Shown: in pieces, positions 16,841 through 63,884 of the stretch | How positions within the stretch are numbered: position 1 is the stretch's first letter | Layout of the letters: each line of letters opens with the position of its first letter | Assembly: GCA_040880005.1 (NCBI GenBank) | Contig: JBBDJG010000015.1 | Location: 61,588-125,587 of the forward strand | Length of the DNA stretch: 64,000 nt | Source of the DNA: Solirubrobacterales bacterium | GTDB lineage: Bacteria; Actinomycetota; Thermoleophilia; Solirubrobacterales; JBBDJG01 | Reading direction: 5' to 3' | Made by a program: the position numbers and the translations under genes | Notes under the pieces: generated by a model | Databases searched by the model: none | What the model saw: the letters and a program-made list of their open reading frames with translations, nothing else | Told to the model about the DNA's origin: nothing

Positions 16841-17520
16841 CAGGACGGTGTGTCTGGAGCGGGACGTTCGACGTTCGTCCGTGACTCGCCGGATGCGCCG
16901 GCATCGCCTGGACCGCGCCGGCGGCGGATCACCAGGTAGACGAGCCACGCGAGGATCGCGGCCACGATCGCGTAATCGAGGTAGTGGAGCTTCTCCTGAA
17001 ACGGCTCCCAGTTGTCGCCGAGCTCTTTGCCGGCGATCGCAAAGCCCGCCATCCATGGAATCAGGCCGGCAAGCGTGAGCCACGTGAACTTCCAGAAGGG
17101 CATGCGCGCGACACCGGCGGGGAGCGATATGAAAGTGCGGATGACGGGGATCATGCGCGTAAAGAACACCGTCGCGCCTCCGTGACGTTCGAACCAGCTG
17201 TCGGCCCAGGCCAGGTGCTTGGGGCTGATGTGGAGCCACTTGCCGTGCTTTTCGATCAGCTCCACCCGCCCGTAGTAGCCGACTCCGTAGGCGATCCACG
17301 AGCCGACGAGGTTGCCCGCAACTCCCGCGACGATCACCTCGAAGAGGCTGAAACGCCCGTCGGAGACCTCGAAGCCGGCGAACAGCATCACTGCCTCGCT
17401 GGAGGTGGGTATGCACGCCGCGTCGGCCACCATCAGGCCGAAGATCCCGGGCAGGCCGAGATCACCCACCACATCGGTGGCGAAGTTGATCACTGGCTCG
17501 CTGATAGAGGCGATGAACAT
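16840..17520 (-). CDS. DedA-family membrane protein
   Basis: Track ORF 16840..17784 trimmed to ATG 17520 (MFIASISEPV...). DedA core FFTRMIPVIRTFISLPAG. Its TGA overlaps the uppP ATG (ATGA at 16838-16842). Confidence 0.85.
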   Translation of the reverse strand: MFIASISEPVINFATDVVGDLGLPGIFGLMVADAACIPTSSEAVMLFAGFEVSDGRFSLFEVIVAGVAGNLVGSWIAYGVGYYGRVELIEKHGKWLHISPKHLAWADSWFERHGGATVFFTRMIPVIRTFISLPAGVARMPFWKFTWLTLAGLIPWMAGFAIAGKELGDNWEPFQEKLHYLDYAIVAAILAWLVYLVIRRRRGPGDAGASGESRTNVERPAPDTPS

Positions 17521-17607
17521 GCGTGGGCTGCCGGTGCCGCAGCGCGCGGGCATTCCCTGCATGCCCGCGCACTCGCAAGCGGCAGCGTACCGTGCCACGC
17601 GTCGCGA

Positions 17608-19626
17608 ATGGCCGGTCGGAAACAATCGAGAGAACGACCAGAGGCGGGCGTCCTTCCGCCTGCAGCGCGAAGTCAGGGGCGCCCGGAGGAGCCCGAAGCC
17701 CGTAAACTGCGGCAGATGCTCCAGGCACTGCCATCCCGGCTGCCGTCGCCCCGCGACCCCGTCTGGCGGCACCGTCTGTTCCAACTCCTGGTCGATGCCG
17801 GGCTGGTTGCCCTCGCCTACTTCCTGGCCTACCTGCTGCGCTTCGACGAGGGAATTCCGCGTCGCTACGGCGAGCTCCTCGGGGCGACGATCGTGTTCGT
17901 CGTCGTGGGCAAGATCGCGATCTTCTACGCATTCGGCCTTTACGACAAGTGGTGGCGCTACGCTGGGCTGCGCGACTTCGAGTCGATCCTGAAGGCCTGT
18001 GTCGTCGCGAGCCTGGTGCTGGTCGGCGTTCTCTTTGTGTGGTCCCCGACCGACAACGAGCTGCCGAGGTCGGTCGCGGCGATGGATCTGTTGCTGACCA
18101 TCGCGCTGATCACCGGCGCGAGGTTCATCGTGCGGGCGGTGATCGAGCGGCCGCCGCGTGGCGCGGTGATACCGAAAGGCCAGGAGGTCCTGATCATCGG
18201 TGCCGGCGAGGCCGGTCAGCTGATCGTGCGTGAGATGCGACGCAGCCCCGAGCTGCGTCAGACGCCGATCGGTTTCGTTGACGACGATCCACGCAAACGG
18301 GGCATGCGTATTTTCGGGTTGAAGGTGCTCGGCACGACGCGCGATCTAGAGCGGCTGCTGGACGAGGTCGAGCCGGACGAGGTGATCATCGCGATCCCTT
18401 CCGCTCCGGGAATCGTGCGCGAGCGGGTTGTGCGCTCCTGCAGGGAAAGGGACATCCTCGTACGGACGCTCCCGGGTGTGTTCGAGTTGATCTCGGGCTC
18501 GGTCAACCTGATGCGGCAGGTGCGGGAGGTCCAGGTCGAGGACATCCTGGGACGCCAGCCGATCAAAGTCGAGATCGGCGAGACGGGCTCGTATTTGAGC
18601 GAGCGGACCGTGCTCGTAACGGGTGCGGGAGGCTCGATCGGGGCCGAGCTGTGCCGGCAGATCGCGCACGTCAAGCCGCGCCTTCTGGTGATGGTCGATC
18701 ACGCCGAGGACAACCTGTTCGAGATCGAGCGTGAGCTGCTCTCGGACCGGCACTTCACGGGATGCGAGTCGATCCTGGCCGACTGCAAGGACACCGAGCG
18801 CATGGTCGAGGTGATGCAGCGGTTCCACCCGGATGTGATCTTCCACGCGGCTGCCTACAAGCACGTTGCGCTGACCGAGGACAACCCGCTCGAGGCCGTG
18901 CGCAACAACACGATTGGCACCCAGGTGGTGGCGACGGCTGCGGCGGATGCCGGCGCCGATCTGTTCGTGCTCGTGTCCACCGACAAGGCCGTCAGGCCGA
19001 TCACGGCGCTGGGAGGTTCGAAGGCGATTGCCGAGTGGATCGTGGATGCATGCGAGTATCGCTACCCGGATACGTCTTTTTGCTCGGTGCGGTTCGGCAA
19101 CGTGCTCGGGTCGAGTGGCAGCGTTGTGCCGCTGTTCCGGCGCCAGATCGAGAAGGGGGGACCGGTGACGGTCACACACCCCGACATGGCGCGTTATTTC
19201 ATGACGATTCCGGAGGCGGTGCAGCTGATCATCCGGTCCGGGAAGCTGAGCACGGGAGGCGAGGTGTTCGTGCTCGAGATGGGTGAGCAGGTACGGATCA
19301 TCGATCTGGCTCGCAACATGATCCGGCTTTCGGGACAGGAGGTCGATCGGGACATCCGCATCGAGATCGTCGGGCCGCGCCCGGGTGAGAAGCTGCGCGA
19401 GGAGCTGTTCAACGAGGACGAGCAGCCGGTCGCGACCGAGGCCGACCGGATCGTGAAGGTCGAGCGCGAGTCGCTCGACCCCGACCGGGTCGACGCGGTG
19501 ATCGATCAGGTGGGGAGGCTTGTCGAGCACGGTGACGAGGCGTTCCTGGCGCAGCGCATCGCGGAGCTGGCGAGACTTCCGCGGCAACAGGCGGTCAAGG
19601 ACCTCAACGCGCTGATCGAACGCTGA
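17608..19626 (+). CDS. CapD/PglF/WbpM-type membrane-bound nucleotide-sugar 4,6-dehydratase
   Basis: Track ORF 16984..19626 trimmed (the upstream part is antisense to dedA). ATG 17608 or ATG 17716 are candidate starts. N-terminal TM helices, then VLIIGAGEAGQ and VLVTGAGGSIGAEL Rossmann motifs and SDR catalytic region. Confidence 0.85.
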   Translation: MAGRKQSRERPEAGVLPPAARSQGRPEEPEARKLRQMLQALPSRLPSPRDPVWRHRLFQLLVDAGLVALAYFLAYLLRFDEGIPRRYGELLGATIVFVVVGKIAIFYAFGLYDKWWRYAGLRDFESILKACVVASLVLVGVLFVWSPTDNELPRSVAAMDLLLTIALITGARFIVRAVIERPPRGAVIPKGQEVLIIGAGEAGQLIVREMRRSPELRQTPIGFVDDDPRKRGMRIFGLKVLGTTRDLERLLDEVEPDEVIIAIPSAPGIVRERVVRSCRERDILVRTLPGVFELISGSVNLMRQVREVQVEDILGRQPIKVEIGETGSYLSERTVLVTGAGGSIGAELCRQIAHVKPRLLVMVDHAEDNLFEIERELLSDRHFTGCESILADCKDTERMVEVMQRFHPDVIFHAAAYKHVALTEDNPLEAVRNNTIGTQVVATAAADAGADLFVLVSTDKAVRPITALGGSKAIAEWIVDACEYRYPDTSFCSVRFGNVLGSSGSVVPLFRRQIEKGGPVTVTHPDMARYFMTIPEAVQLIIRSGKLSTGGEVFVLEMGEQVRIIDLARNMIRLSGQEVDRDIRIEIVGPRPGEKLREELFNEDEQPVATEADRIVKVERESLDPDRVDAVIDQVGRLVEHGDEAFLAQRIAELARLPRQQAVKDLNALIER

Positions 19627-20807
19627 TGGCAGACGCACTGGTCGTTGCGAGCATCGTCGAGCGCCTGGGAGCGTACGTCGGCTTTCTTGCGCTGGTCGGA
19701 CTGGCGATTCTGGCGCTGCTCTACTTCTCGCAGGCACGCGACGTGCGACGGTTGCGCGAGTGGGCCGGCCGGGCCCCCGAGCGGGCGGCCGAGGCCGAGC
19801 AACGCGCGGCTCAGGTGCTCGCGCAGCCCCAGCAGCAGGCCGTTGTGCGCCGCGCTGCCGCGCCGGCCGCGACCGCCGGCGCGGCGTCGGCCACCGCCAC
19901 CGCGGCTTCCCCGAGTGCTCCTGCGACGGCGGCGGGGCGGGCGGCCGTCGCCGGCACCACGCAAACTGCCGCCGGCCCCGGCCGGGTCGCGGAGGGGGAG
20001 CAGGCCGCTCCGCCCGAGCAGGCTGAAACGGAGGGGGAGAGCCTGGAGCAGGAGGAACTGGAGGCTGAGCCCGGGCACGAGCTGGAGGAGCAAGGGCAGG
20101 AGCAAGGGCAGGAACAGGAGATCGTCCCAGAGGCGGACGGCCTCGACTACGAAGAGGTCGAGCAGGACGAGGAAGCGATCGTGGCGGCGACCGGTGGCAA
20201 CGCTCACGCGGTTACGGACCAGCCGACCGTTGCGCAGGAGTCGTTGCAACCGCTGGCGCCCGAGCACTACCTTCCGGGCACCGCGTATCGCGACGCGAGC
20301 CCGCGCAGGCGCAAGCCTCTGCGCCGTCGCTTGCGCAACATCTACATCCCACAGTTGCGCTACATCGTCGCGGGCGTTGCCGTCGCAGCATTGTTCGTGC
20401 TGGGCGTCGGATCGATCGCGGGCGTGATCGATATCGGCGGCGGGTCGGACGAGAGTGGCGGCAAGTCCAAGAAGGCACAGGGTCCCCAGCAGAGCGGTCA
20501 GGCCGCGAACGTCGATCCTTCGCAGGTGACGGTGGCCGTGCTCAACGGCACGACGGTGACCGGCCTCGCCTATCGCGTCAGCCAGGAGGCGGAATCGAGC
20601 GGCTTCACACTCGGAAACGTGACCAACGCCGCCACCACCGACCAGCAGGGGTCGGAGGTTCTGTACGCGCCCGGTCAGAAAGGTGCCGCGCGTGCGGTGG
20701 CGGATCGCCTCGGAATATCGACGGTCACTCCGGTCGATTCGGTCAATGCGGAGATCGCCGGGTCGGCCGACGCGGTCGTGCTGGTCGGGGCAGACCGAAG
20801 CGAGTGA
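19626..20807 (+). CDS. membrane protein with acidic/Ala-rich low-complexity linker and LytR_C-type C-terminal domain
   Basis: 393 aa. ATG overlaps the capD-like TGA by 1 nt. Two TM segments. E/Q/A-rich region includes a 12-nt tandem GAGCAAGGGCAG x2 at 20088-20111. C-terminal VTVAVLNGTTVTGLAYRV...VLVGADR matches the LytR C-terminal domain pattern. Confidence 0.7.
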   Translation: MADALVVASIVERLGAYVGFLALVGLAILALLYFSQARDVRRLREWAGRAPERAAEAEQRAAQVLAQPQQQAVVRRAAAPAATAGAASATATAASPSAPATAAGRAAVAGTTQTAAGPGRVAEGEQAAPPEQAETEGESLEQEELEAEPGHELEEQGQEQGQEQEIVPEADGLDYEEVEQDEEAIVAATGGNAHAVTDQPTVAQESLQPLAPEHYLPGTAYRDASPRRRKPLRRRLRNIYIPQLRYIVAGVAVAALFVLGVGSIAGVIDIGGGSDESGGKSKKAQGPQQSGQAANVDPSQVTVAVLNGTTVTGLAYRVSQEAESSGFTLGNVTNAATTDQQGSEVLYAPGQKGAARAVADRLGISTVTPVDSVNAEIAGSADAVVLVGADRSE

Positions 20808-22597
20808 CGAAGCGGCGACCGGGCGCGCTGGCGATCCAGTGCGTGTTCGCGGCGCTCGTGGTCGCCACGTTTGCCGCGTTCTTCGCGACGACGCGCCTCA
20901 AACGATCGCCGCCGGTCGTCCAGGAGCTGGCGGTCCGGCGCCACTTCTCCCCCAATGTCGACGGGCGCCTCGATGTCGCGCCGGTGCGGTTCAGGCTGCG
21001 ACGCAGCGATGACGTGACGGTCTTGATCGTCTCGCGGGATGGCGAGCAGGTTGCAACGCTGGCGGACGACGTGAGGTTGGGAAAGGGCGGGCATCGCTTC
21101 GTCTGGAACGGGCGCGCCGACGACGATCGGATTGCGCCCGACGGCGTCTATTACGCGCGAGTCGTGCTGCGACATCAGGGGCGCGTCGTCACCTCGCCGC
21201 GCAAGCTGTTTCTCGACACGACCGGTCCCAGCTCGATCGTCCGCTACGTTTCGCCCGACGCGATCACGCCGGGCGTGCCGGGCGCAGAGCGAGCGCGCGT
21301 GCGTTTCACCGGCCCGACCAGAATCGCGCCGACGCTACTGGTCTATCGCACGAACGAACGGCCGGGTGTTCGACCGCTCCTGGTCGCACGCCGCGCAGGC
21401 AAGAGGGACGATCCCAACCTGAGCTGGGACGGCCGCGTCGGGCTCGGCCGCGATACGCGACTCGCCCCCGCAGGCAACTACTTGATGGTGGTTCGGACCC
21501 GCGATGCCGCTGGCAACGACGGCCCGGAAGGTCCGCCACGCACGGCCGCTGAGGTGCGCGGAAATCCGGGCGTGGTCGTGCGCTACCTGGCCGCTGTCGC
21601 GCCTCGCGACCGTGTGAACGCGGGTGGCGTCGCCCGGTTCGCGGTGCTTGCGGCTGGGCGGCGCTACCGCTGGAGCGTGAGCAGAGTTGGCTCGAGCCGC
21701 CCGCAGAAGCGTGGCCGCTCGAGCGATCGTACACTGCGGGTTGGCGTCCCGCGGCGCTCTCGTACCGGCGCCTACCTGCTCGAGCTGACGCTCGACGAAC
21801 ACCGTTACGCGACGCCGTTTGCGGTGCAGGGAAGGGGCCGCGAGCCCGTGCTGGTGGTGTTGCCGGTGGCGAGCTGGATCGCGCGGGACCCGATCGATTC
21901 CGACGGCGACGGCTATTCGGACACGCTGCCCCAAAGTGACAGCGTGCCGGCATCGCGCCCGATCGCCGGATCCGGGCTGCCAGGCGGTTTCGAAACGTCG
22001 CTCGTGCCCGCGCTCGAGTTCCTGGACAGGGCGAAGCTGCGCTACGACATCGCCAGCGACCTCGATCGGCGTTTTGCCCGGCTGCTCGATCGCCACCCGG
22101 GTGTGCTCTATGCGGCGTCGCCGCGTGTCGAGACGACCACCGCGCTCGGTTCCCTGCGATCGCACATGCGCGCGGGCGGTCAGCTCGCATGGCTTGGCAC
22201 GGGAGGCTTTGTAACGGACGCTCGAGTCGAGAAGGACGCGTTCGTGCGGGTGCCCTCACCGCCGGGCGCAAACTCGTTCGGCGAGCGGCTGCGGATCGAC
22301 CCGGCCGGTGGCCCACTGTCCGTGGGCGCGAATCGCAACGGCCTGTTTGAGAACGTGCCATCTCCGTTCGGCCCGTTCGCGTCGCTCGAGCTGGCGCAAT
22401 CGGTGCCGAAAGGGGCGCAACGGACGGCGGCGGCCGGCCCGCCGGACCAGGGACCCGCGATCGTGTCCTACCGCATGGGCGCCGGTGGCTTCACCCGCGT
22501 CGGCGCGGCAGACTTCGGGCAGTCGCTGCGGGCGGACGGCGGCCTGCCGTCAAGCGCCCAGATAATGCGCAACCTATGGAACCTGCTGCGTTCCTAG
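20804..22597 (+). CDS. membrane-anchored hypothetical protein with FlgD-Ig-like N-terminal domain
   Basis: 597 aa. GTGA overlap with the upstream gene. TM helix CVFAALVVATFAAFFA. VTVLIVSRDGEQVATL...GHRFVWNGRADDDRIAPDGVYYARVVL resembles the FlgD Ig-like fold. The rest is unassigned. Confidence 0.6.
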   Translation: MTKRRPGALAIQCVFAALVVATFAAFFATTRLKRSPPVVQELAVRRHFSPNVDGRLDVAPVRFRLRRSDDVTVLIVSRDGEQVATLADDVRLGKGGHRFVWNGRADDDRIAPDGVYYARVVLRHQGRVVTSPRKLFLDTTGPSSIVRYVSPDAITPGVPGAERARVRFTGPTRIAPTLLVYRTNERPGVRPLLVARRAGKRDDPNLSWDGRVGLGRDTRLAPAGNYLMVVRTRDAAGNDGPEGPPRTAAEVRGNPGVVVRYLAAVAPRDRVNAGGVARFAVLAAGRRYRWSVSRVGSSRPQKRGRSSDRTLRVGVPRRSRTGAYLLELTLDEHRYATPFAVQGRGREPVLVVLPVASWIARDPIDSDGDGYSDTLPQSDSVPASRPIAGSGLPGGFETSLVPALEFLDRAKLRYDIASDLDRRFARLLDRHPGVLYAASPRVETTTALGSLRSHMRAGGQLAWLGTGGFVTDARVEKDAFVRVPSPPGANSFGERLRIDPAGGPLSVGANRNGLFENVPSPFGPFASLELAQSVPKGAQRTAAAGPPDQGPAIVSYRMGAGGFTRVGAADFGQSLRADGGLPSSAQIMRNLWNLLRS

Positions 22598-32106: not shown

Positions 32107-32753
32107 AGCCGCAAGCAAGGCCGGCCGTGCCTGCCGATCCGAGGCCGCGGGTCATCCGCGCGATCAAGCGCGCGCTCGACCTCGTCGGGGCCGCGGTCCT
32201 GCTCGTGCTCAGCTCGCCGCTGCTTGCGCTCGCGTGTGGGGCGATCCGGATCGGGTCGCGCGGCTCGCCGATCTACCGGCAGCGCCGTGTCGGTAAGCGC
32301 GGCCGCGACTTCGAGCTGCTGAAGCTGCGCACGATGGTCGAGGGTGCCGAGGGCAGCGGCAAGGGGCTCGCGGTTGACGAAGACGATCCGCGCATCACGC
32401 GCATCGGTGCGCTGCTGCGCCGCTTCTCGCTCGACGAGCTGCCCAACCTGTTGAACGTCGTGCGTGGTGAGATGAGCCTGGTCGGGCCACGCCCGACCGT
32501 GCGGGTTCAGGTCGATCAGTACACGCAGCGCCAGCTCGGCCGGCTCGCGGTCGAGCCCGGCATCAGCGGCTGGGCGCAGGTGCAGGGCCGGGCGTCCTTA
32601 CCGTGGCACGAGCGCATCGAGTTGGACCTTTGGTACGTGGAGAACTGGTCGCTGCGGCTCGACGCGCGCATCGCGTGGATGACGCTGCGGCTGCTGATCA
32701 GCGGCAGGGGACTCTACCGCGGCTCGACTGGCGGCTGGCGCCCGCCGGAATAG
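32103..32753 (+). CDS. initiating phosphoglycosyl transferase (small bacterial sugar transferase, PglC/WbaP C-domain type)
   Basis: Track ORF 31752..32753 trimmed to GTG 32103 (GTGA overlap with the GT2 stop). KRALDLVGAAVLLVLSSPLL re-entrant helix. FELLKLRTM, DELPNLLNVVRGEMSLVGPRP signature. Confidence 0.85.
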   Translation: MKPQARPAVPADPRPRVIRAIKRALDLVGAAVLLVLSSPLLALACGAIRIGSRGSPIYRQRRVGKRGRDFELLKLRTMVEGAEGSGKGLAVDEDDPRITRIGALLRRFSLDELPNLLNVVRGEMSLVGPRPTVRVQVDQYTQRQLGRLAVEPGISGWAQVQGRASLPWHERIELDLWYVENWSLRLDARIAWMTLRLLISGRGLYRGSTGGWRPPE

Positions 32754-32886
32754 GGGCACGATGCAACGCTCGTCACGCAGTACCAGCTTGCTGCACGAGT
32801 TGGCACGTCCCAGCCGGCGCTCGCCTGTTAGGAGACAGCCGCAGCTCTACCAACCTTCCCGACGCTCGAGCGCCCGCCTCGATCCA

Positions 32887-32936
32887 GTGTTGTGAGGCGG
32901 TTTGAGTTGCGCTGAGTTGCTCCGACCTTCGCTCAT
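32887..32936. repeat. degenerate 10-bp-periodic ...TGAG repeat, related to the 95-bp repeats at 59794 and 60793
   Basis: GTGTTGTGAG GCGGTTTGAG TTGCGCTGAG TTGCTCCGAC CTTCGCTCAT read in 10-nt register. Same unit type (xxxCGCTGAG) as the 59.8/60.8 kb repeats. Lies about 100 nt 3' of the minus-strand DUF4143 ATPase gene. Confidence 0.5.
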
Positions 32937-33037
32937 GTTGATGCCAAAAAGATGCTCGAGCTAGTGAGACCGCACCATCCGGCTGCTTGCTCATCGGATC
33001 GTGCCGATCGCGTCTCTTGATCTGATCGGGCTCCCGT

Positions 33038-34291
33038 CTACGGCCCGAGCGCGCCAACTGGAACAACGCTGATGCCGTCATCACGGACGTAGCCGTAGCC
33101 GGATCCCGTGATCACGACCAAGGCGCTGGGCGCACCGGTCTTCGACGAATCAACGCGCTTCGCGAGCTTCAACAGGTTCCGGGCACCTTCATCAATCCAG
33201 TTCTGGCCGAGCTTGATCTCGAACGCTGCCCAGCGCCCGTCCACGGCCTGAACGACGGCGTCGACTTCGAGGTCCTGGTCCTTGTACTGGAGGACCTCAG
33301 CGTCGGCCGCCTGTGCATAGATCCTCAAGTCGCGCACTACCAACGACTCGAACAGAAAGCCAAGGAAGCTGAGGTCGTCTAGGGTCGTCTGCGGAGACCC
33401 GCGAAGCGCCGCGACCGCGAGCGAGGGACATACGAAGTGGCGCTTCGCCTGCGATCGCAGCGCGTGCCTCGAGCGAAGATGCGGCGCCCACGCCGGCTGA
33501 TCCTCGCGGACTTTCAGCCGGCGCAAGGCGTCGAGGTAGTCTCCGACGGTGTCGCGCTTTAACGGGTCATCGCCCCCGCCGGTGTCTGCCGCGAGGGTTG
33601 AAACGCTGGCATACGTTGCCACGTTGCGGGCCAGGCTGCGAAGCAGCACGGCGACACGCTCGGGGTCACGGCGGGCAGTCCCGACGCGGTTGATGTCCAC
33701 GCGGCGGACCTCGTCGAGATAGCTGCGATTCGCGTGCAGAGCTTCGCCTTGCTCGAGCCCCTGAATCGCCGGCCACCCTCCAACAGCGATCCGCGCTGCC
33801 AGGTCGCCGAGCGTCACTCCTGTATCGGGGGAGCGAACCGGCCGACCATCCAGGAGCGACTCCAACGAGATCGAGCCATCGCTGTGGCTCGTCTCGAGCA
33901 GGCTCATCGGCCGCATCTGGATGCGGGTAATGCGCCCCGCGCCGGTATGACGACTCTCATCCTCCGCTGGCACCGCTGATCCGGTGAGAATGAATTGCCC
34001 CGGCTGGGCGCGGCGATCCACTTCCCGGCGAACGTGGTTCCAAAGCTCAGGGACCAGCTGCCACTCGTCGATCAGCCTTGGCGTTTCGCCCTCCAAGACG
34101 AGCGAGGGATCGATGGAGGCGGCCTCTCTCGCCTGGAGGTCGATGTCGAGCAGCACCTCGCTGCGGGCGATCTGGCGCGCCGTTTCGGTCTTGCCCGAGG
34201 CCTTTGGACCCTCGATCAGGACGGCGCCGAGCGCTTCCAGGCGCCGCCGCAGCTCGCTATCTAGTATTCGGGGAAAATACACAGCGGGCAA
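33038..34291 (-). CDS. AAA-type ATP-binding protein with DUF4143-like C-terminal domain
   Basis: 417 aa. Walker A GPKASGKT. ...RLIDEWQLVPELWNHVRREVD...FILTGS and C-terminal ...GFLFESLVVRDL...LQYKDQDLEVDAVV pattern of the AAA_14/DUF4143 family. Flanked by AT-richer DNA. Confidence 0.85.
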   Translation of the reverse strand: MPAVYFPRILDSELRRRLEALGAVLIEGPKASGKTETARQIARSEVLLDIDLQAREAASIDPSLVLEGETPRLIDEWQLVPELWNHVRREVDRRAQPGQFILTGSAVPAEDESRHTGAGRITRIQMRPMSLLETSHSDGSISLESLLDGRPVRSPDTGVTLGDLAARIAVGGWPAIQGLEQGEALHANRSYLDEVRRVDINRVGTARRDPERVAVLLRSLARNVATYASVSTLAADTGGGDDPLKRDTVGDYLDALRRLKVREDQPAWAPHLRSRHALRSQAKRHFVCPSLAVAALRGSPQTTLDDLSFLGFLFESLVVRDLRIYAQAADAEVLQYKDQDLEVDAVVQAVDGRWAAFEIKLGQNWIDEGARNLLKLAKRVDSSKTGAPSALVVITGSGYGYVRDDGISVVPVGALGP

Positions 34292-56774: not shown

Positions 56775-57104
56775 TTGCCGTTGACTCAGTCGCAATTTGC
56801 CAGCGCCATCGCCGACCGTGCCGAGATCAGCAAGGTCGAGGCCAAGCGCGTGCTCGACGCGCTCGAGGAAGTCGTGCTCGATGAGATCGAAAACGCAGAG
56901 AAGGTGAAGATCGGCAGCCTCGTGCAGCTGACGGTGCGCGTGAGGCCCGCCTCGAAGGCACGCCCGGGACGCAATCCCGCAACCGGCGAGGAGATCACGA
57001 TCGCCGCGAAACCCGCGAGTGTCGTTTTACGCGCGCGAGCGCTTACGAAGGCCAAGAGCGTGCTGCCGTCGGTGCAAACAGCGCGTCGGCGACTTGGCGG
57101 CTAG
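56775..57104 (+). CDS. HU/IHF-family DNA-binding protein with basic C-terminal extension
   Basis: 109 aa. TTG start with GAGGAGGAGG upstream. ...FASAIADRAEISKVEAKRVLDALEEVV...RPGRNPATGEEITIAAKPA (HU signature). Confidence 0.85.
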   Translation: MPLTQSQFASAIADRAEISKVEAKRVLDALEEVVLDEIENAEKVKIGSLVQLTVRVRPASKARPGRNPATGEEITIAAKPASVVLRARALTKAKSVLPSVQTARRRLGG

Positions 57105-57201: not shown

Positions 57202-57432
57202 CTACAACAGGCGCTGAAACTCGGCTCGGCTGATGCCTGCCGTCTTAAGGATGTTGAGCAGCAATCCTGGCTTGATGTTCCGGTTGCCGTGGATGGGTAC
57301 CGAAATCGCGTCGGGGATGGTCGGATGGCGCATGATGTGGTGGCTGCCCTTCGTGCGCTTGAGATACCAGCCCTCGGCTTCAAGGACCTTGAGGCGCTGC
57401 TTGCCTCTTACCGAGGGGAGCTTGTGGCTCAC
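57202..57432 (-). CDS. hicA: HicA-family toxin (mRNA interferase)
   Basis: 76 aa. ...LKVLEAEGWYLKRTKGSHHIMRHP...SVPIHGNRNIKPGLLLNILKTAGIS. 4-nt overlap with the upstream hicB. Confidence 0.85.
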   Translation of the reverse strand: MSHKLPSVRGKQRLKVLEAEGWYLKRTKGSHHIMRHPTIPDAISVPIHGNRNIKPGLLLNILKTAGISRAEFQRLL

Positions 57433-57650
57433 GCGTGGACCGCTACCTGGTCACGCTCGACCGAGGGGATTGGCAGGCCGTCCTCGCGCATGACCTCGAG
57501 GTAGCCCTCAATTGCCTCTTTGGCCATCGCCAGGGCTTGCTCGCGGGTCTCACCCTGGATGGCCACGCTGGGCAACTCCGGAACGAAAACGCTGTAGCCG
57601 CCTTCTTCCTCGAGCTGAAGCACTACCTCGTATTCGCGCACGTTGTCCAT
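57429..57650 (-). CDS. hicB: HicB-family antitoxin (UPF0150 N-domain only)
   Basis: 73 aa. YEVVLQLEEEGGYSVFVPELPSVAIQGETREQALAMAKEAIEGYLE. Confidence 0.8.
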   Translation of the reverse strand: MDNVREYEVVLQLEEEGGYSVFVPELPSVAIQGETREQALAMAKEAIEGYLEVMREDGLPIPSVERDQVAVHA

Positions 57651-58217: not shown

Positions 58218-59405
58218 ATGCCCGTTGCCAGTGCCGAGCCGCGCTGGTATGTTGCCGCTGTTGTGACTCGCAGGCGCCTCAAGAGCATAGGGCTGGCGCT
58301 AATGGCGGCGGCGGCGCTGTCGATGCTGGCCGTGCCGGTCAGCGCGGACGCCAAGCGCAAGCGCGCGGCCAAGCCGACGCTGAGGATGAAGGCCAAGTTT
58401 CCCAAGGCAGGCAAGATGAGCTTCTCGGTCGGAGCGTTCAAGGTCACGGCACAGCGCAGCAAGCGCAGCCGGTCCGCACGGCACTCCGCCAAGAAGCGCA
58501 AGCGCGCGCTCAAGGTCAAGGCCCGGATTCGCAACCGCGCACGCGTTCCCTCCAACGCGCTGGTGTTTCTGCGCGTCGCCAAGGTGAAGAAGAAGCGCAA
58601 CAACTTCGTGGCCAGCGCGATCGTGGTGAACAGTCGCAAGACATCGAAGTCCGCGACCACTGCGGACGACGACGATCTCCAGCCCGGCGACGAGGTCGAG
58701 ATCGAGATGGAACTGACACTCGCCGACGGAACGGTCCTGCGCGGCAAGTTCATCGGCACGGTGGTCGAGGATGATGACGTTGAAGACAACGATCCCGACA
58801 ACCGGAATGTATGCGGGCCGTCCGGTCTGCTGAACAGCGAGGATGATGGCGCCGCCTTTTCGGTGCGCACGCTGTACAACCAGATCCTCAACAGGCTGTC
58901 CGACCAGACCCTCAACCGGCTGTTCGAGCTCACCGGCGATCTCAACTGCGACAGCGTCGTTGACGCTGCCGACTACGCTTTTTATAGGAGCCTGCTGGGA
59001 ATCGACGGTGGCGCCGTTCCCGGTGCTCCCCCGTCACCCCTCTGTCCCGGCGCTCTGCAGGCCGCGCCACTTCCGTTCGCGGCCACCGAGTTCGAGATCT
59101 TCTTCAACTGCAACCAGTCGGCCTCCAGCCTCGGCTTCCTGGTGCCCGGAGCGCGGTCGATCCCGCCCGGCTTGTTCATCCCGCCCGTGAACCTGCCCAA
59201 CTGTCAGATCCAGAGCGCCGAGGGCGGCACCGACAACTTCCTGCTGTGTCAGGGCGGAACGCTGCCCGCCGGTGTGCAGAACATCGTCCGGATCCATCCC
59301 AGCGTGCAGCTCGGCAACTGCGACAAGGCCAAGCTCTACTTCAACCCGCTCGGCACCTCGTCGCCGGCGGTGACCGATACGGACGCGTTCGCGACCTGTC
59401 CATAG
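58218..59405 (+). CDS. secreted protein: K/R-rich N-terminal module, acidic linker, dockerin-like motif, Cys-containing C-terminal domain
   Basis: 395 aa (alternative GTG start 58263). Signal peptide LKSIGLALMAAAALSMLAVPVSADA. Basic stretch KRKRAAKPTLRMKAKFPKAGK...KKRKRALKVKARIRNRARV...VKKKRNN. DLNCDSVVDAADYAFYRSLLG is dockerin-like. Confidence 0.65.
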   Translation: MPVASAEPRWYVAAVVTRRRLKSIGLALMAAAALSMLAVPVSADAKRKRAAKPTLRMKAKFPKAGKMSFSVGAFKVTAQRSKRSRSARHSAKKRKRALKVKARIRNRARVPSNALVFLRVAKVKKKRNNFVASAIVVNSRKTSKSATTADDDDLQPGDEVEIEMELTLADGTVLRGKFIGTVVEDDDVEDNDPDNRNVCGPSGLLNSEDDGAAFSVRTLYNQILNRLSDQTLNRLFELTGDLNCDSVVDAADYAFYRSLLGIDGGAVPGAPPSPLCPGALQAAPLPFAATEFEIFFNCNQSASSLGFLVPGARSIPPGLFIPPVNLPNCQIQSAEGGTDNFLLCQGGTLPAGVQNIVRIHPSVQLGNCDKAKLYFNPLGTSSPAVTDTDAFATCP

Positions 59406-59734
59406 CTCCTTCCGGTCTGCGCCCCCGATCTCGGCTACATGCGGGCGTGTCGCAGTAGCACGCGTCGAGCCGACGATCGACGCACTGGTCGACGCGCTCG
59501 AACGCGATATGGACGCCGCCGGGCTTGAACGGCGCACCTCGCCGGCAACCGGCTCGGTGGCTGGCTGGCGGTGGAGCTGGCGCGGCGAGGACGCCGCGTA
59601 CGGATTTCGGGCATTCGTCGAGTGCCCGATCTACTTCGGGTTGATGGAGGCGACCACCCCAGCTGGACCGCCGCGCGACTTCAAAGGGGTTCACTGTCCT
59701 GTGTTGCTCGCGAACGAGAGACCAAGCAATCAAG

Positions 59735-59780
59735 CGGATGGAGCTAGTCGGACTCGAACCGACGACCTCCTGGGTGCGAT
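59735..59780 (-). repeat. exact 46-nt duplicate of the tRNA-Ala(CGC) 3' half (att-type direct repeat)
   Basis: CGGATGGAGCTAGTCGGACTCGAACCGACGACCTCCTGGGTGCGAT is identical to 63111-63156. This covers tRNA positions 32-73 plus 4 nt downstream. Similarity decays after the anticodon loop. Confidence 0.9.
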
Positions 59781-59793
59781 AACGGCGCTACGA

Positions 59794-59888
59794 GTTCTGT
59801 GAGGTGCGCTGAGCTGCTGTGAAGTGCGCTGAGGTGCTCTCAGGTTCTCTGAGTTTCGCTCAGTTTGAGACCACGGTTGAGTCCACGG
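59794..59888. repeat. 95-bp repeat copy 1, built from 10-bp units (consensus about GTKCKCTGAG)
   Basis: GTTCTGTGAG GTGCGCTGAG CTGCTGTGAA GTGCGCTGAG GTGCTCTCAG GTTCTCTGAG TTTCGCTCAG TTTGAGACCA CGGTTGAGTC CACGG. 21 nt 3' of the methyltransferase stop and 13 nt from the tRNA fragment. Confidence 0.9.
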
Positions 59889-59909
59889 GGGAAAAGCCTA
59901 AGCACTTCG

Positions 59910-60737
59910 TCACGCCCGTTTGCCCACGGCGAGCAGATACTCCTTCTCGAAACGTGCTGCGTCGGGCGTGCCAAGGTTCCACTCGTCGCAGAACTGGTCC
60001 AGCGCCTCGTTGAACTCCGCTTCGCGCTCGTTGTTTCGCGCGTTTGTCAAGGCGGCGATGGTCGGACCGTACCGTGTCTTGAAGTGCTCCCCGTAGTCGC
60101 GTGGATGCTCGAAGGCAGTGATCTCCAGCATTTCACGCTTCAGCGTCAGAAAGTTGACGCGGGCGCCAAACAACTCGTCCAAGTGCTCCTCGCTACCCCA
60201 CAGCGGCGGAGGTTGTGCGCCCGGTGGAGGTGGCGGGGCGAACGGCCCCATCGTCCGGAACAGCGCGCCGATCATGCCTTCGGGAGTCCAGCTCAAGAGT
60301 CCGATCGTGCCGCCCGGACGGCACACGCGGACCAGCTCGTTGGCGACGTCTTGGTGGTGGGGCGCGAACATCGCGCCGATCGACGACATCACGACGTCGA
60401 AAGACTCATCTTCGAACGGAAGGTGCTCTGCGTCGGCTTCGACCCATTCGAGCGCGACTCCCTCCGCCTCGGCGCGGCGACGTCCCGCCTCGAACAGCTC
60501 GGGCGTCAGGTCGCTGGCGGTGACGTCCGCCCCGGCCCGCGCCGCGGGTATCGAGGCGTTGCCAGTGCCGGCGGCGACGTCGAGCACGCGCATCCCCGAG
60601 GCGACACCGCACCCCTCGACGAGTCTCGGGCCCAGCGGCAACAGGAATGTCTCGACCATGGACGGGTAGTCGCCCGAGGCCCACATCGCTCGATGGCGGG
60701 CCTTAAGTTCAGAATCCGGTGTGGTGGCAGACGGCAA
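59910..60737 (-). CDS. class I SAM-dependent methyltransferase
   Basis: Track ORF 59910..61049 trimmed to TTG 60737 (AAGGGAG 7 nt upstream). The longer version runs through the repeat and the next gene. WASGDYPSMV..., motif I VLDVAAGTGNASI, DVVMSSIGAMF. Confidence 0.85.
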   Translation of the reverse strand: MPSATTPDSELKARHRAMWASGDYPSMVETFLLPLGPRLVEGCGVASGMRVLDVAAGTGNASIPAARAGADVTASDLTPELFEAGRRRAEAEGVALEWVEADAEHLPFEDESFDVVMSSIGAMFAPHHQDVANELVRVCRPGGTIGLLSWTPEGMIGALFRTMGPFAPPPPPGAQPPPLWGSEEHLDELFGARVNFLTLKREMLEITAFEHPRDYGEHFKTRYGPTIAALTNARNNEREAEFNEALDQFCDEWNLGTPDAARFEKEYLLAVGKRA

Positions 60738-60792
60738 GGCGCTCTCCCTTCTGGTTGGCCTGTGGACAGTACCGCGCCTCGGCCTCAAGCGT

Positions 60793-60887
60793 GTTCTGTG
60801 GGGTGCTCTGAGCTGCGCTGAAGTGCTCTGAGGTGTTCTCAGGTTCTCTGAGTTTCGCTCAGTTTGAGACCACGGTTGAGTCCACGG
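60793..60887. repeat. 95-bp repeat copy 2 (6 mismatches to copy 1; last 50 nt identical)
   Basis: GTTCTGTGGG GTGCTCTGAG CTGCGCTGAA GTGCTCTGAG GTGTTCTCAG GTTCTCTGAG TTTCGCTCAG TTTGAGACCA CGGTTGAGTC CACGG. Exactly 999 bp from copy 1 and 28 nt 3' of the SnoaL-like gene stop. Confidence 0.9.
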
Positions 60888-60915
60888 AAGAAATTGTCGC
60901 CGCCGCCATCCACTT

Positions 60916-61311
60916 TCATTCCCGCAGCCCCACGGTTTCGAGGGCCTCCGCGTGGTCCCAGAAGAACTCCAGGTAGAAGATCCTGCCCTTGCGCACCGTG
61001 TAGACGCCCGTGAACTCCATGCTCGACTCAGGGCCATGGCCTGCGGCACGCCAGATCATCCTCAGAACAACTCGGTCGCCGGCGCCGACCAAGTCGCTGA
61101 TCGGTTCCAATGCGTCGGCGTCCCAGGTCTCGCGATTCTGCTCGTACTGGCGCATGACCGCCTCCCGCCCCACGAAGGGCCCCGGCTCCGGCCAACCCTC
61201 CGGGGGCCGCATGATGACGTCGGGGTCGTACAACTCACGAAGGGCATCCATGTCACCCGCGTTCCACGCCTCCAAGGCGGCCTGCATCACCTCAACGTTT
61301 TCCTGGGACAT
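60916..61311 (-). CDS. SnoaL-like / NTF2-fold protein
   Basis: 131 aa. MSQENVEVMQAALEAWNAGDMDALRELYDPDVIM... is the typical ketosteroid-isomerase/SnoaL-like N-terminus. Confidence 0.8.
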   Translation of the reverse strand: MSQENVEVMQAALEAWNAGDMDALRELYDPDVIMRPPEGWPEPGPFVGREAVMRQYEQNRETWDADALEPISDLVGAGDRVVLRMIWRAAGHGPESSMEFTGVYTVRKGRIFYLEFFWDHAEALETVGLRE

Positions 61312-61400
61312 CGTCGGCGCAGTATCTCGCTTCTGCCCTATGGACCGCTGGATCTTCTAACCGTCAGTGGCCAGAACGGTCGTGCGAAGCGACCAGAGAA

Positions 61401-61439
61401 TGGAGCTAGTCGGACAACTCTCGAACCCTCAACTCCAGC
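61401..61439 (-). repeat. degenerate tRNA-Ala 3'-end fragment
   Basis: TGGAGCTAGTCGGAC-aactc-TCGAACC... matches 63115-63136 apart from a 5-nt insertion, and similarity is lost thereafter. Confidence 0.45.
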
Positions 61440-61584
61440 TTCAGCTTCGAAGGGCTAGCAAGTCTCCGGCCTGAAATGGGCTTGGGATCGAACCGTAGAG
61501 TCGAGGACACTTCGCCGATGACTGTCGAACTCCCAATCACGATGGGTGGCGAGGCCGGATACGACGCCCCTATACTTGGTTGGT

Positions 61585-61827
61585 ATGACCGCCAAGGAGA
61601 AGCTTGTTCATGCAATTGATGGGCTGTCCGAGTCCGAGGCTCGCGACACCCTTCACTATCTTGCAGAGCGTCATCATCAGGACGCGCTGGTGGAGTTTCT
61701 CAAGGGCGTTCCCGAGGGTGAGGATCCAACCACACCCGAGGAGGAGGAGGGTCTCCGCGAAGCGAGAGCCGAGGTCGAGCGTGGTGAGACGGTGGTACTC
61801 GAAGACCTCAAGCGCGAACTGACTTGA
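61585..61827 (+). CDS. type II antitoxin (partner of the RelE/ParE toxin)
   Basis: Track ORF 61546..61827 trimmed to ATG 61585 (MTAKEKLVHAIDGLSESEARDTLHYL...). Acidic C-terminus. Its stop overlaps the toxin TTG start (TTGA). Confidence 0.65.
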   Translation: MTAKEKLVHAIDGLSESEARDTLHYLAERHHQDALVEFLKGVPEGEDPTTPEEEEGLREARAEVERGETVVLEDLKRELT

Positions 61828-62090
61828 GCGCGCGCAAATCGTGGCGCGTCGAGTTCTCGGCTCGCGCGGCACGTGACGTGCGCCGCCTGGACCCACCCGT
61901 CCGCCGACGAGTGCTCGACGCGCTTGAACAGCTGAGAGGCGACGGTCCGCGTGGCGACGTAATCCGGCTCAAGGGCGGCGACGATTTCCGCTTGCGCGTA
62001 GGTGACTGGCGCGTGCGCTTCCAGCACGATCACGCGGCCCGCACGATCTACGTGCTGCGTGTCTTGCCCCGCGGTCGCGCGTACCGGTGA
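61824..62090 (+). CDS. RelE/ParE-family toxin
   Basis: 88 aa. WRVEFSARAARDVRRLDPPVRRRVLDALEQL...LKGGDDFRLRVGDWRVRFQHDHAARTIYVLRVLPRGRAY is the classic RelE/ParE pattern. Confidence 0.8.
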   Translation: MSARKSWRVEFSARAARDVRRLDPPVRRRVLDALEQLRGDGPRGDVIRLKGGDDFRLRVGDWRVRFQHDHAARTIYVLRVLPRGRAYR

Positions 62091-62354: not shown

Positions 62355-63059
62355 TCAGTCTGGCCGTCGGTCGCGTCGTTCGGTGCTGTGTGCCGTGTCG
62401 ACGTCCAAACCCTCCCGGTACAGTCGAACGCTGAAAGCGCCGAGGAGCAGCACTGCCGGTAGGAACATGAGCAGGACCGCGGGCGTCAGCATCGCTAGCG
62501 CGACAAACAGCGCAAGCCAGGCGCCCCACTGTGGTAGCACCCGTCCCGTCCGAAGAGCAACTAACGCGGTGGGCGCAGCCACCGCAGCGATCGCGACCCC
62601 GAACGACGGAGCGCCGAACGCATAGGACACATCGAAGTAGATCTGGGCGGTATCGCTCGTGAGCTCGCCGTCATCGGCCCTCATGGCTCCAGCCATGTTG
62701 ATCGTTTCAGCCCCGAGCGCGACCACGGCTGTGAGGACCGTGCCACCGAAGGCCATAAGCGGCAATCCGCTCCGCCCTGGGCCCTCAGCGGCGGCGAGGC
62801 GCTCCCGTAACACGGCCCCAAACCAGACGAAGAACGGTAGCGAAACGATGCTGGTCGTTCCTCCGATGCGAATCTCAGTCGAAGTGCTCTTGTAGAAGGA
62901 GACGATCTCCTCGGCCCCAGCACCTTGCGGGGGCTGCTCGAAACCCCAGATCAGATTGCCGATGGCGACCAGGACCGCAGTAGCCAGACCGGAGAGGGGT
63001 GCGAGGTGAGAAAGTCGATCCACCGGCGTGAGCTTAATTCCGCGACGTGCCGGGCACAA
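62355..63059 (-). CDS. hypothetical integral membrane protein
   Basis: 234 aa (start uncertain). About 6 hydrophobic segments (LATAVLVAIGNLIW, IVSLPFFVWFGAVL, LMAFGGTVLTAVVALGA, FGVAIAAVAAPTALVAL, WLALFVALAMLTPAVLLMFLPAVLLLGAF). Confidence 0.6.
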   Translation of the reverse strand: MCPARRGIKLTPVDRLSHLAPLSGLATAVLVAIGNLIWGFEQPPQGAGAEEIVSFYKSTSTEIRIGGTTSIVSLPFFVWFGAVLRERLAAAEGPGRSGLPLMAFGGTVLTAVVALGAETINMAGAMRADDGELTSDTAQIYFDVSYAFGAPSFGVAIAAVAAPTALVALRTGRVLPQWGAWLALFVALAMLTPAVLLMFLPAVLLLGAFSVRLYREGLDVDTAHSTERRDRRPD

Positions 63060-63114
63060 GTCGACGGGAAGAGCTCAACCATGTGCGATCCGTCCAGCAA
63101 AGCAACCAACCGGA

Positions 63115-63187
63115 TGGAGCTAGTCGGACTCGAACCGACGACCTCCTGGGTGCGATCCAGGCGCTCTCCCAACTGAGCTATAGCCCC
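63115..63187 (-). tRNA. tRNA-Ala (anticodon CGC)
   Basis: Reverse complement GGGGCTA TA GCTC AGTTGGGA GAGC G CCTGG ATCGCAC CCAGG AGGTC GTCGG TTCGAGT CCGAC TAGCTCC A folds as a 73-nt cloverleaf. Anticodon loop is A-T-CGC-A-C. G3:U70 alanine identity pair is present. CCA is not encoded. Confidence 0.92.
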
Positions 63188-63293: not shown

Positions 63294-63884
63294 ATGGGAC
63301 CGTTGGATGACGCAATTCGCGAGCATCTCGAGCTGAAACGCCAGCACGGGACGACGGAGGACGAGCTAAAACGCCAGGAGGATGAGGCGTTTGGTCGTGG
63401 CATCGTCGCGCCCGCGCCCGAGCCCGAACAACACGAACCGATTGTCGAACAGCAGGTCGTGCAGGCCGAGTCCGAGCCGATCGCTGAGTCCGAGCCTATC
63501 GCCGCACCGGAACCTATCGCCGCGCTGGAGCCCTTGCCCGAGCCGGTTACTCAACACGAGCCAGTCGTGCCTCCCGAGCCGGTCGGCGAACGCGAGCCGC
63601 TGCCGGACGAGCCGATCCCGCTGTCTCCCGAGCCCGAACCGTTGCCGGATCCGTTCCCCGAGCCGGAGCCCGATTTCGAACCGCTGCCGATGCCCGAACG
63701 GGAGCCCGACCTGGAGCCGGTGGCGGCTGCACAGCCGACCGAGCTTGCCGATCCTGCTTCGGAGGAAGAGATGGCCGGCGGAGAGGAAATCCTCGAGGAG
63801 ACGCCCGAATTCCTGGAGGAGAGCCCCGACAGCGACCGCCTCTGGTTCGAGCATCAGGGCCCGAAAGACTTCGAATTCGACTGA
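63294..63884 (+). CDS. acidic Pro/Glu-rich repeat protein with conserved-looking termini
   Basis: 196 aa. N-terminus MGPLDDAIREHLELKRQHGTTEDELKRQEDEAFGRG. Central (E/A)(S/P)EPIA and EPxP repeats. C-terminus ETPEFLEESPDSDRLWFEHQGPKDFEFD. Good codon bias. Confidence 0.7.
   Translation: MGPLDDAIREHLELKRQHGTTEDELKRQEDEAFGRGIVAPAPEPEQHEPIVEQQVVQAESEPIAESEPIAAPEPIAALEPLPEPVTQHEPVVPPEPVGEREPLPDEPIPLSPEPEPLPDPFPEPEPDFEPLPMPEREPDLEPVAAAQPTELADPASEEEMAGGEEILEETPEFLEESPDSDRLWFEHQGPKDFEFD

Follow-up and report, generated by a model that had tools for sequence, protein, structure and literature searches.

Phased 10-bp repeats at a tRNA-Ala gene of a Solirubrobacterales bacterium as probable attachment-site arms of small tRNA-integrating elements

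In a 64,000-nucleotide stretch of the genome of a Solirubrobacterales bacterium (contig JBBDJG010000015.1; the whole of this stretch is referred to here as the window), two same-orientation copies of a short element built from phased 10-bp units lie close to a tRNA-Ala gene, each just past the stop codon of a small accessory gene. This locus raises the question of what such an element is and how it came to stand there twice. Very likely, this element of 95-104 bp represents the P arm in the attachment site (attP) used by small integrative elements that enter the 3′ parts of tRNA genes in soil Actinomycetota (Solirubrobacterales-like) by means of a lambda-type heterobivalent tyrosine integrase. 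The element is homologous to integrase 3′ ends, it is associated with tRNA-derived cores, and in complete relatives its two terminal 12-mers co-vary on both arms of the attachment site. The family seems to be undescribed, and the kind of sequence to which it belongs, the arms and scars of tRNA-integrating elements, is well known.

The direct repeat is 104 nt long, with copy 1 at 59791-59894 and copy 2 at 60790-60893, 999 nt from start to start. A preliminary description of the window had recorded two 95-bp repeats with six differences and this spacing, and the repeat search agrees: within 59794-59888 the copies differ at 59802, 59808, 59818, 59819, 59828 and 59837, and the final 51 nt (50 in that description) are identical. 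Outside the 104 nt, similarity ends abruptly on both sides. The ladder of about seven phased decamers per copy is equally clear, as Tandem Repeats Finder reports a period of 10 (5.1-5.4 copies) and a period of 20 in the left 70 nt of each copy, and lag-10 self-identity is 0.70 and 0.72 for the two copies, values reached by 0 of 10,000 shuffles (p<1e-4). Four CTSAG-N5 units in phase occur twice in the window, with 0.00 occurrences expected. At the right end, a 12-nt unit is present twice in each copy (59865-59888 and 60864-60887). The distances to the neighbouring genes are also as first described, with the methyltransferase stop (59910-59912) 21 nt from the end of copy 1 and the SnoaL-like stop (60916) 28 nt from the end of copy 2. 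The small hairpins proposed from the alternation of CTGAG and CTCAG have no structural signal, since neither the plus strand (z = +0.65) nor the minus strand (z = +1.19) folds better than shuffled sequence. In the repeat search of the window there was no inverted repeat in the element and there were no terminal inverted repeats, and tRNA was the only Rfam match in the element region. Short-read assemblies will fragment this locus, because Logan contigs of the same organism (L001:2248-2283 and a 1,007-nt P0121 contig) end within the identical 51-nt part of the repeat.

A third ladder near a DUF4143 ATPase gene, noted in the preliminary description as degenerate, is real but weak. It lies at 32880-32946, about 100 nt from the stop codon of the AAA_14/DUF4143 gene, and is matched by nhmmer at E = 0.0017 with a two-copy profile and at E = 4e-4 (32880-32941) with a 44-sequence family profile; copy 1 matches the family profile at E = 1e-19. 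By its sequence, this third copy is probably a genuine, decayed relative of the P arm. An Rfam scan of 32500-33100 returned nothing, and no tRNA fragment was detected alongside.

The element is not peculiar to this genome. A degenerate ladder pattern matched 42 soil-metagenome contigs, and nhmmer found further homologues in a Solirubrobacterales and an Actinomycetes metagenome-assembled genome (MAG), in both of which tRNA-like fragments stand just upstream. The first pattern used on the genome collection (CTSAG-N5, four times) was too loose and is its own reverse complement; among the matches listed, most were due to chance, and nhmmer filtering left L011, L039 and L082 as the only homologous loci (L numbers denote individual loci throughout). 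A Rikenellaceae genome, MAG332 (JBCQUE01..., within L002-L114), gave many matches to this loose pattern, often in runs spaced by 40 nt (L005 at 2537, 2577 and 2617), which are an unrelated abundant tandem or dispersed repeat. Two ladder-pattern scans of viral contigs gave no matches, and a phage origin was rejected on that basis.

What the family copies share is the company of tRNA sequence. A reverse-complement T-loop motif is found in 34 of the 46 family copies, either 60-67 or 79-89 nt from the anchor position, and in 4% of controls. At least four kinds of tRNA fragment adjoin the element: a tRNA-Met-like and a tRNA-Ala kind that begin in the anticodon loop, and two kinds that begin in the T-loop. 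In L131, L142, L146 and L155, the end of an open reading frame (ORF) reading ..HGEWNYTIQPAA* occupies the place of the tRNA-derived core upstream of the ladder; it resembles the C-terminus of an insertion sequence transposase inserted beside the arm. In L147, the tRNA-Ala fragment is interrupted, about 60-170 nt upstream of the ladder, by some 70 nt of inserted sequence that contains hairpin-like repeats (CCTCCGTAACGGAGG, GCTGCTTGGATAGCAGC), and 22 nt of the tRNA fragment recur in inverted orientation about 370-390 nt into the island.

On its other side, the element has an equally constant partner. Clustering of ORFs over all loci returned one dominant neighbour, a gene for 400-445 aa that lies on the other strand and extends at its 3′ end into the element; its product is a tyrosine integrase (PF00589 match, E = 7e-32). 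Such integrases are contiguous with the element in L125, L133, L139, L163 and L164-L168, and the co-occurring recombinase that the preliminary description had proposed to look for is, in relatives of the window, this recurrent neighbour. The same clustering showed no recurrent replication gene beside the element, the integrase recurring instead; nothing speaks for the iteron or nucleoid-protein sites that had also been suggested, as the element is associated with tRNA cores and integrases and not with a replication gene. In L125, L133, L139, L163 and L137, the integrase ORF enters the element and reads ..AAFA-RGSN-RGSN-LSESEV.. after the catalytic ..RYADY.., so that, in the integrase frame, the RGxN repeats are encoded by the two 12-mers and LSES by the start of the ladder.

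The tail of these integrases behaves as DNA rather than as protein. Relatives of the integrase comprise 5,895 proteins at E <= 1e-40, with Solirubrobacterales among the named sources, and the tail is present in most of the best 120 of them. The third, variable residue is the same in both tail tetrapeptides in 78 of the 83 tails parsed from these 120 (35 expected), a count which, the sequences being related, is not a probability, and the residue between the tetrapeptides varies freely (R, P, S, Q, G, A, W or L). The matched repeats and the free spacer fit two copies of one DNA site and not a constraint on the protein. The place of the stop codon is not fixed either, with positions from +4 to -116 relative to the anchor, and the DNA block is still recognisable.

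The complete relatives show what these sites may be. L164, L165 and L167 hold complete elements of about 8-9 kb, lying between an intact tRNA-Pro gene and a tRNA T-arm repeat, and all three repeat the 12-mer motif of their integrase tail, again as a tandem pair, at 50-60 nt past the intact tRNA and clear of any integrase ORF. The pairs on the two arms are as follows.

L165: P arm (integrase tail), AGGTAGCAAT twice; P′ arm, AGGTAGCAAT twice.
L164: P arm, GGTACCAAT and GGGACCAAT; P′ arm, GGGACCAAT and GGGACCAAA(T); in short form, GG(T/G)ACCAAT and GGGACCAA(T/A).
L167: P arm, GTGGTACCAAT twice; P′ arm, GTGGTACCAAC and GTGGTACTGAT.

The 12-mers differ among these elements in step on both arms. Because such element-specific, matching repeats stand on both arms, the two tandem 12-mers can be read as arm-type integrase sites, putatively bound by the N-terminal domain of the integrase. 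This supports the recombinase arm sites that were among the possibilities first raised. The cognate integrase of the window arms would be expected to end in ..RGLNRGLKLSETQ, with a P′ pair of the form TTGAG(A/T)CCACGG. About 5 kb past the tRNA-Pro element of L164, at 16605-20984, a tRNA-Arg gene precedes an AAA_14/DUF4143 gene and a TacA/GNAT pair; this region may be another island, and the same gene types adjoin ladders elsewhere, including the third copy in the window.

In the window itself, the corresponding features are the following, from left to right along the forward strand, with the distant third copy given last.

59724-59789, minus strand: candidate attR core, a partial duplicate of tRNA-Ala(CGC) that starts at the anticodon loop, takes in everything up to the 3′ end and continues for 15 nt into the downstream flank; 92% identical to 63100-63165.
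59791-59894, plus strand: P-arm copy 1 (putative); in the integrase frame the minus strand reads ..RGLNRGLKLSETQRT*, homologous to the integrase 3′ ends of L125, L133, L139 and L163.
59794-59863, plus strand: ladder of seven 10-nt units (..CTGAG / ..CTCAG), between the arm-type sites and the core.
59865-59888, plus strand: two 12-mers in tandem, TTGAGACCACGG and TTGAGTCCACGG, putatively bound by the integrase as arm-type sites.
59910-60737, minus strand: class I S-adenosylmethionine-dependent methyltransferase, 275 aa (Pfam Methyltransf_25/11), with a TTG start and a GGGAG ribosome-binding site; cargo between the arms.
60790-60893, plus strand: P-arm copy 2 (putative), solitary, with its ladder at 60793-60862 and its 12-mers at 60864-60887; no recognisable tRNA-derived core on its left.
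60916-61311, minus strand: SnoaL-like protein, 131 aa (Pfam SnoaL_2, E = 3e-17); cargo right of copy 2.
61395-61415, minus strand: short degenerate fragment of the tRNA-Ala 3′ end, 90% identical, read as an internal att core of a tandem array.
61546-62090, plus strand: ParE-type toxin (61824-62090; Pfam ParE_toxin) and, upstream of it, an ORF of antitoxin size; part of the islet nearest the tRNA.
62355-63059, minus strand: predicted membrane protein, 234 aa, no Pfam match, in the islet nearest the tRNA.
63115-63187, minus strand: intact tRNA-Ala(CGC) (ARAGORN; Rfam tRNA, 67 bits), the putative integration target on the attL side.
32880-32946, plus strand: probable decayed third P-arm relative (nhmmer).

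Read in order, the locus thus runs from chromosomal flank through core, arm 1, methyltransferase, coreless arm 2, SnoaL-like gene, degenerate core, toxin pair and membrane protein to the tRNA-Ala gene. Site-specific integration into a tRNA gene classically leaves the target gene at one end of the insert and a second copy of its 3′ part at the other. Here the two lie 3.3 kb apart, with core repeats at 59724-59789 and 63100-63165 at the two ends of the island. The preliminary description had seen an exact 46-nt tRNA-Ala duplicate (59735-59780) 13 nt from 59794, and this stands; the fuller, 66-nt duplicate continues to 59789 and abuts the repeat, ending 2 nt before copy 1 starts. The adjacency had thus been noticed, and what had been missed was the role of the duplicate as the att core that would explain the element. 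By these alignments, copy 1 together with 59724-59789 reads as the attR junction of an integrated element, which carries the full P arm, and the 3.3-kb interval as a decayed tandem array of integrase-less islets. The same tRNA-Ala locus of a related organism (L143) begins with an intact tRNA, followed by three SnoaL-like genes and an internal tRNA fragment, and closes with the element and a terminal tRNA fragment, the tRNA-Ala fragment again standing beside the ladder. The 196-aa protein encoded directly upstream of tRNA-Ala in the window (63294-63884), rich in EP/PE repeats, has 74% DNA identity over its 5′ end at the same position in L143, so that the tRNA side of the locus is syntenic between the two.

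Other features border the island. Just outside the att core, 59400-59720 reads by eye as a frameshifted alpha/beta hydrolase fragment (..GNRLGGWLAVELARRG.. across frames) and is probably a pseudogene; a HicA/HicB toxin-antitoxin pair and an HU-type DNA-binding protein are encoded just outside the island (57202-57650 and 56775-57104); and the G+C content of the window falls from about 67% to about 64% from 56 kb on. The methyltransferase protein with its TTG start is not on record in exact form. Its orthologues at 94% and 88% identity stand in contexts with neither ladder nor tRNA-Ala fragment nearby, and for this reason the idea of the methyltransferase as a travelling cassette was rejected; the methyltransferase of L169, at 31% identity to that of the window, was dropped as an informative relative.

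The role of the ladder can be approached through its position. On the integrase side of every complete element, CTSAG units in 10-bp phase occupy the roughly 70-80 bp that separate the core from the arm-type pair, and this position relative to arm sites and core is the same in L164, L165, L167 and L168, the last of which has a ladder close to that of the window. In phage lambda, the same position holds tandem sites for the excisionase (Xis) and sites for bending proteins. Genes of the HTH_17 excisionase type are present in L164, L167 and L168, in L168 directly upstream of the integrase. Winged-helix recombination directionality factors (RDFs) and the related BldC are reported to assemble head to tail into filaments, in which successive BldC molecules sit one DNA turn apart (PMC11963761). 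The lambda position, the HTH_17 genes and these filaments are the reasons for reading the ladder as an excisionase (Xis/RDF) or DNA-bending array of the arm, which by position and analogy is the most likely role, at about even odds. Intrinsic curvature and extra integrase sites are possible alternatives.

Put together, these parts suggest how an intact element may work. The integrase gene would read toward attP, its last 20-45 codons after ..AAFA traversing the arm, which would carry two tandem 12-bp arm-type integrase sites at the end far from the core and about 70 bp of CTSAG units in 10-bp phase between these sites and the crossover core. Integration would leave the arm beside the displaced tRNA 3′ fragment as attR. 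The N-terminal domain of the integrase would bind the 12-mers, and an HTH_17 excisionase may polymerise on the ladder with one protomer per helical turn, or the DNA may otherwise be bent, so that arm and core meet. In the window, copy 1 and its core would be attR, the intact tRNA-Ala would mark the other end with the islets between, and copy 2 would be a second arm, left by a related element whose core is gone. At present the window copies are presumably inert, or movable at best by an integrase supplied from elsewhere.

Several observations weigh against this account. With family integrases as queries, tblastn finds tail remnants only in the window and no integrase of that family, so that the first remark that no recombinase is present holds for this family. 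The exact window 12-mer motif occurs only at four sites, all inside the two copies, and no cognate P′ arm was found beside the tRNA, which is why the recombination competence of the array cannot be shown. Copy 2 lacks a core, unlike what a simple integration model predicts, and the role of the ladder is argued from position and analogy only. Among the elements recovered, none of the tRNA-Ala or tRNA-Met type bears an integrase, the contiguous integrases all being of the T-loop (tRNA-Pro-like) types; right of the arm in L130, L140, L147, L148 and L158 (tRNA-Met-type and related), the genes appear, by translation reading alone, to be ordinary metabolic, transporter or TIR-type genes rather than integrases. 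The metagenome scan pattern fixed several conserved columns and thereby introduced a bias, from which L164-L170, recovered through the integrase protein, are free, although they number only seven. Finally, more than 20 integrase-less copies join unrelated DNA within a few nucleotides of the CCACGG end and keep no further integrase codons. With every such junction at one and the same nucleotide, random deletion was rejected as the way in which the integrase-less copies lost their integrase, and so constant a boundary must reflect either selection that preserves the arm or a conserved slot for cargo between it and the integrase. Where 0.7-3 kb separate integrase and arm, the integrase is conserved up to ..AAF(A/G/S/P) and diverges beyond it, which places one to three genes exactly between the integrase body and the arm; a cargo slot flanked by two constrained blocks is the simplest reading.

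Integrase-less copies also occur in arrays. A soil contig of the Joint Genome Institute (JGI), Ga0058697_10001868 (L127, 601-7204), has five copies of core plus arm, all in one orientation, within 7.2 kb and without an intervening integrase, and its cargo comprises a TacA/GNAT toxin-antitoxin pair, a DUF4062 protein, a 694-aa peptidase-like protein and small ORFs; L123 has three arms and is likewise integrase-less. The integrase-less units measure 0.6-3 kb and hold one or two genes. The gene cassettes suggested by the preliminary description are therefore borne out insofar as the ladder recurs in arrays with one or two accessory genes, but these are bounded by tRNA-derived cores and are not of the integron type. 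Its layout of an ORF followed by a 3′ recombination site does not hold as a rule, since in L143 the element lies 5′ of the adjacent SnoaL gene and intact relatives adjoin the integrase itself. Because the units are bounded by tRNA-derived cores, they look like tandem accretion of the kind known from cis-mobilizable elements (CIMEs) and not like integron cassettes. In short, the layout is cassette-like, and the mechanism is probably integration and accretion at tRNA sites, not that of an integron.

Whether such units still move is a separate matter. It is possible, though doubtful, that core, arm and one or two accessory genes form live integrase-less mini-elements (CIME-like or functionally integron-like) that are moved by a family integrase encoded elsewhere and build arrays at tRNA genes. 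The recurrence of arrays, down to the two arms of the window, would fit this, as would the fact that every arm of L127 has its own core. The TacA/GNAT unit, moreover, has the same arm type in L127 and L123 with different right-hand neighbours, near-identical arms (L140, L158) stand beside different tRNA-Met variants and cargo, and the outer arm junction is sharp in more than 20 independent contexts. Comparable integrase-less tandem islands at ssrA have been proposed to be cis-mobilizable (PMC3146451; definition in PMC5704250). On the other side, there was no sign of a circular form, an empty site or an excision polymorphism, and the integrase-less units have no more P′ arm sites than chance would give: allowing one mismatch at most, L127 contains GGAACCAC 16 times, with 10 of these within its arms, and the remainder is close to the chance number of 5. 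A variant core, (A/G)AGGCGCCC..ATCC.ACCATTTGAACGC, with an 8-nt insertion relative to the T-arm fragment TCGGGGCGCCCGGATTTGAACGC, is found in L127 units 2-5, at L123:1322-1350, and upstream of the ladder in L082 and L150; such a core could not rebuild a tRNA, which counts against mobility of these L127 units. The coreless copy 2, the window without a cognate P′ arm and the ladder-free contexts of the methyltransferase orthologues point the same way.

Explanations that deny the element a role in recombination fare worse. That it is a mere pseudogene, left over from the final codons of an integrase gene since deleted, conserved by descent and with no function as DNA, is improbable: its homology to integrase 3′ ends and its open RGxNxGxNLSE frame would be expected on that view, but the 12-mers recur outside ORFs on the P′ arm and co-vary there with the tail, stops shift by more than a hundred positions while the DNA block stays recognisable, the residue between the tetrapeptides changes radically while the repeats stay matched, and the integrase-less copies all end at the same nucleotide with none retaining more integrase codons. 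Still less probable is an integron attC site, a terminator or a small RNA 3′ of accessory genes. The position of both copies shortly past minus-strand stops is what such a function would predict, but no IntI-type integrase or attI-type site was seen, in analyses that included no search aimed at these, and the element is upstream of its neighbour in L143 and overlaps an ORF elsewhere; a structured RNA, terminator or attC hairpin was rejected outright, as both strands fold without signal and Rfam finds tRNA only. A dispersed intergenic repeat unrelated to its neighbours, resembling a repetitive extragenic palindrome (REP) or a miniature inverted-repeat transposable element (MITE), would likewise be short, repeated and non-coding in the window, and the Logan contig L001 does end inside the element; against this stand the missing hairpin and terminal inverted repeats, the occurrence of only two copies (plus the weak third) in 64 kb, the fixed distance of 34 of 46 family copies from a tRNA fragment and the rank of integrases as top neighbour, which make this explanation very unlikely. 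The REP-like case had been named in the preliminary description as one that would overturn its reading, and so had a recent 1-kb tandem duplication; neither is borne out. The two copies share orientation, a 999-bp spacing and an identical end, as the ends of a local duplication would, but only the 104 nt are shared, with unrelated flanks and intervening genes, and the element is present in about 50 other loci. Over 95 nt, L147, from another sample, differs from copy 1 at 7 positions and from copy 2 at 5, similar to the 6 between the copies. By these comparisons the copies are evidently not recent local duplicates, and this last explanation has hardly any probability left. An attP P arm remains the reading to be placed among known systems.

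The closest formal parallel is the P arm of lambda attP, with its arm-type sites P1 and P2, its Xis sites X1-X1.5-X2 and its bending-protein sites. Shared with lambda are short direct repeats of the integrase-binding type on both sides of the core, phased tandem sites between the outer arm sites and the core, and a tyrosine integrase. The present family differs in its unrelated sequences, its tRNA target, an arm that lies inside the 3′ end of the integrase ORF and up to seven 10-bp units in place of three Xis sites, and binding here is putative. Closer in host are mycobacteriophage L5 and elements of the pSAM2 type, which integrate into tRNA genes of actinobacteria and encode an integrase and a helix-turn-helix-type Xis. 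Mycobacteriophage Ms6 integrates in the T-loop of tRNA-Ala (PMC1762012). These share with the present family the phylum, a tRNA 3′ part as core with crossover at the anticodon loop or T-loop, an integrase beside attP and an excisionase-type gene upstream, but the family described here has a distinct and very large soil integrase clade (the 5,895 matches), elements of about 8-9 kb with terminase-like or DnaB-like genes, and unrelated arm sequences.

The attP of ICEMlSymR7A has five arm-type IntS sites and an RDF, RdfS, that forms filaments (PMC11963761). As is proposed here, several arm-type repeats of about 10 bp are required around the core, and a winged-helix RDF oligomerises along the arm; the difference is that ICEMlSymR7A is a proteobacterial integrative and conjugative element of 502 kb whose RdfS has no consensus site, whereas a clear CTSAG repeat is present here. 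The attachment site of archaeal integrases of the SSV type lies within their own ORF (PMC7253208). The overlap of attachment site and integrase coding sequence is a likeness, and the difference is that here the arm alone overlaps a dispensable C-terminal tail; because the ORF does not include the crossover core, the integrase gene stays whole on integration.

For the integrase-less islands, CIMEs and tandem accretion at tRNA-like genes have been described for the ICESt1 family in Streptococcus (PMC5704250), and 15 ssrA islands without an integration module are known in Dehalococcoides (PMC3146451). Tandem islands bounded by repeats of the target-gene 3′ end, some of them integrase-less, fit the window, L143, L127 and L123; the window island holds no integrase of this family, and methyltransferase, SnoaL-like, ParE and membrane protein genes lie between its cores. 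The units differ in that they are of only 0.6-3 kb and each has a complete, conserved 95-bp arm, the recombinase of Dehalococcoides is a serine integrase, and mobility here is putative. Integron attC arrays are alike in being rows of single accessory genes, each with a recombination-site module and no recombinase of its own. They differ from the present arrays, which have no attC hairpin, use tRNA cores and integrase arms as sites and show no fixed orientation of gene to site; these arrays begin at tRNA-derived cores, a lambda-type integrase reads into the site, and no IntI or attI was seen, in the absence of an IntI-specific search.

The motif of phased repeats that drew attention to this locus can thus be explained as the integrase-docking arm of a very large, apparently undescribed clade of tRNA-integrating elements of abundant soil Actinomycetota. 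As an annotation marker, a core followed by about 70 bp of ladder and two 12-mers flags the ends and remnants of islands in MAGs, where integrases are often absent, and the hundreds of co-varying pairs of integrase tail and arm site form a data set for the evolution of arm-site specificity with the sites inside the integrase gene. A further, more speculative possibility, less likely still than the mobility of individual units, is that soil bacteria of the Solirubrobacterales type maintain a cassette system built on tRNA-targeting lambda-type integrases, in which integrase-less units of 0.6-3 kb are moved in trans and stacked at tRNA genes. If this is so, each unit would bring one or two accessory, toxin-antitoxin or defence-type genes with its own core and 95-bp arm, and the methyltransferase and SnoaL units of the window would be two such cassettes. 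The system would then be a functional parallel to integron arrays in which arm-bearing attachment sites replace attC hairpins, and the movement of such tiny gene units in trans at tRNA genes would bear on how accessory and defence genes spread in soil bacteria.

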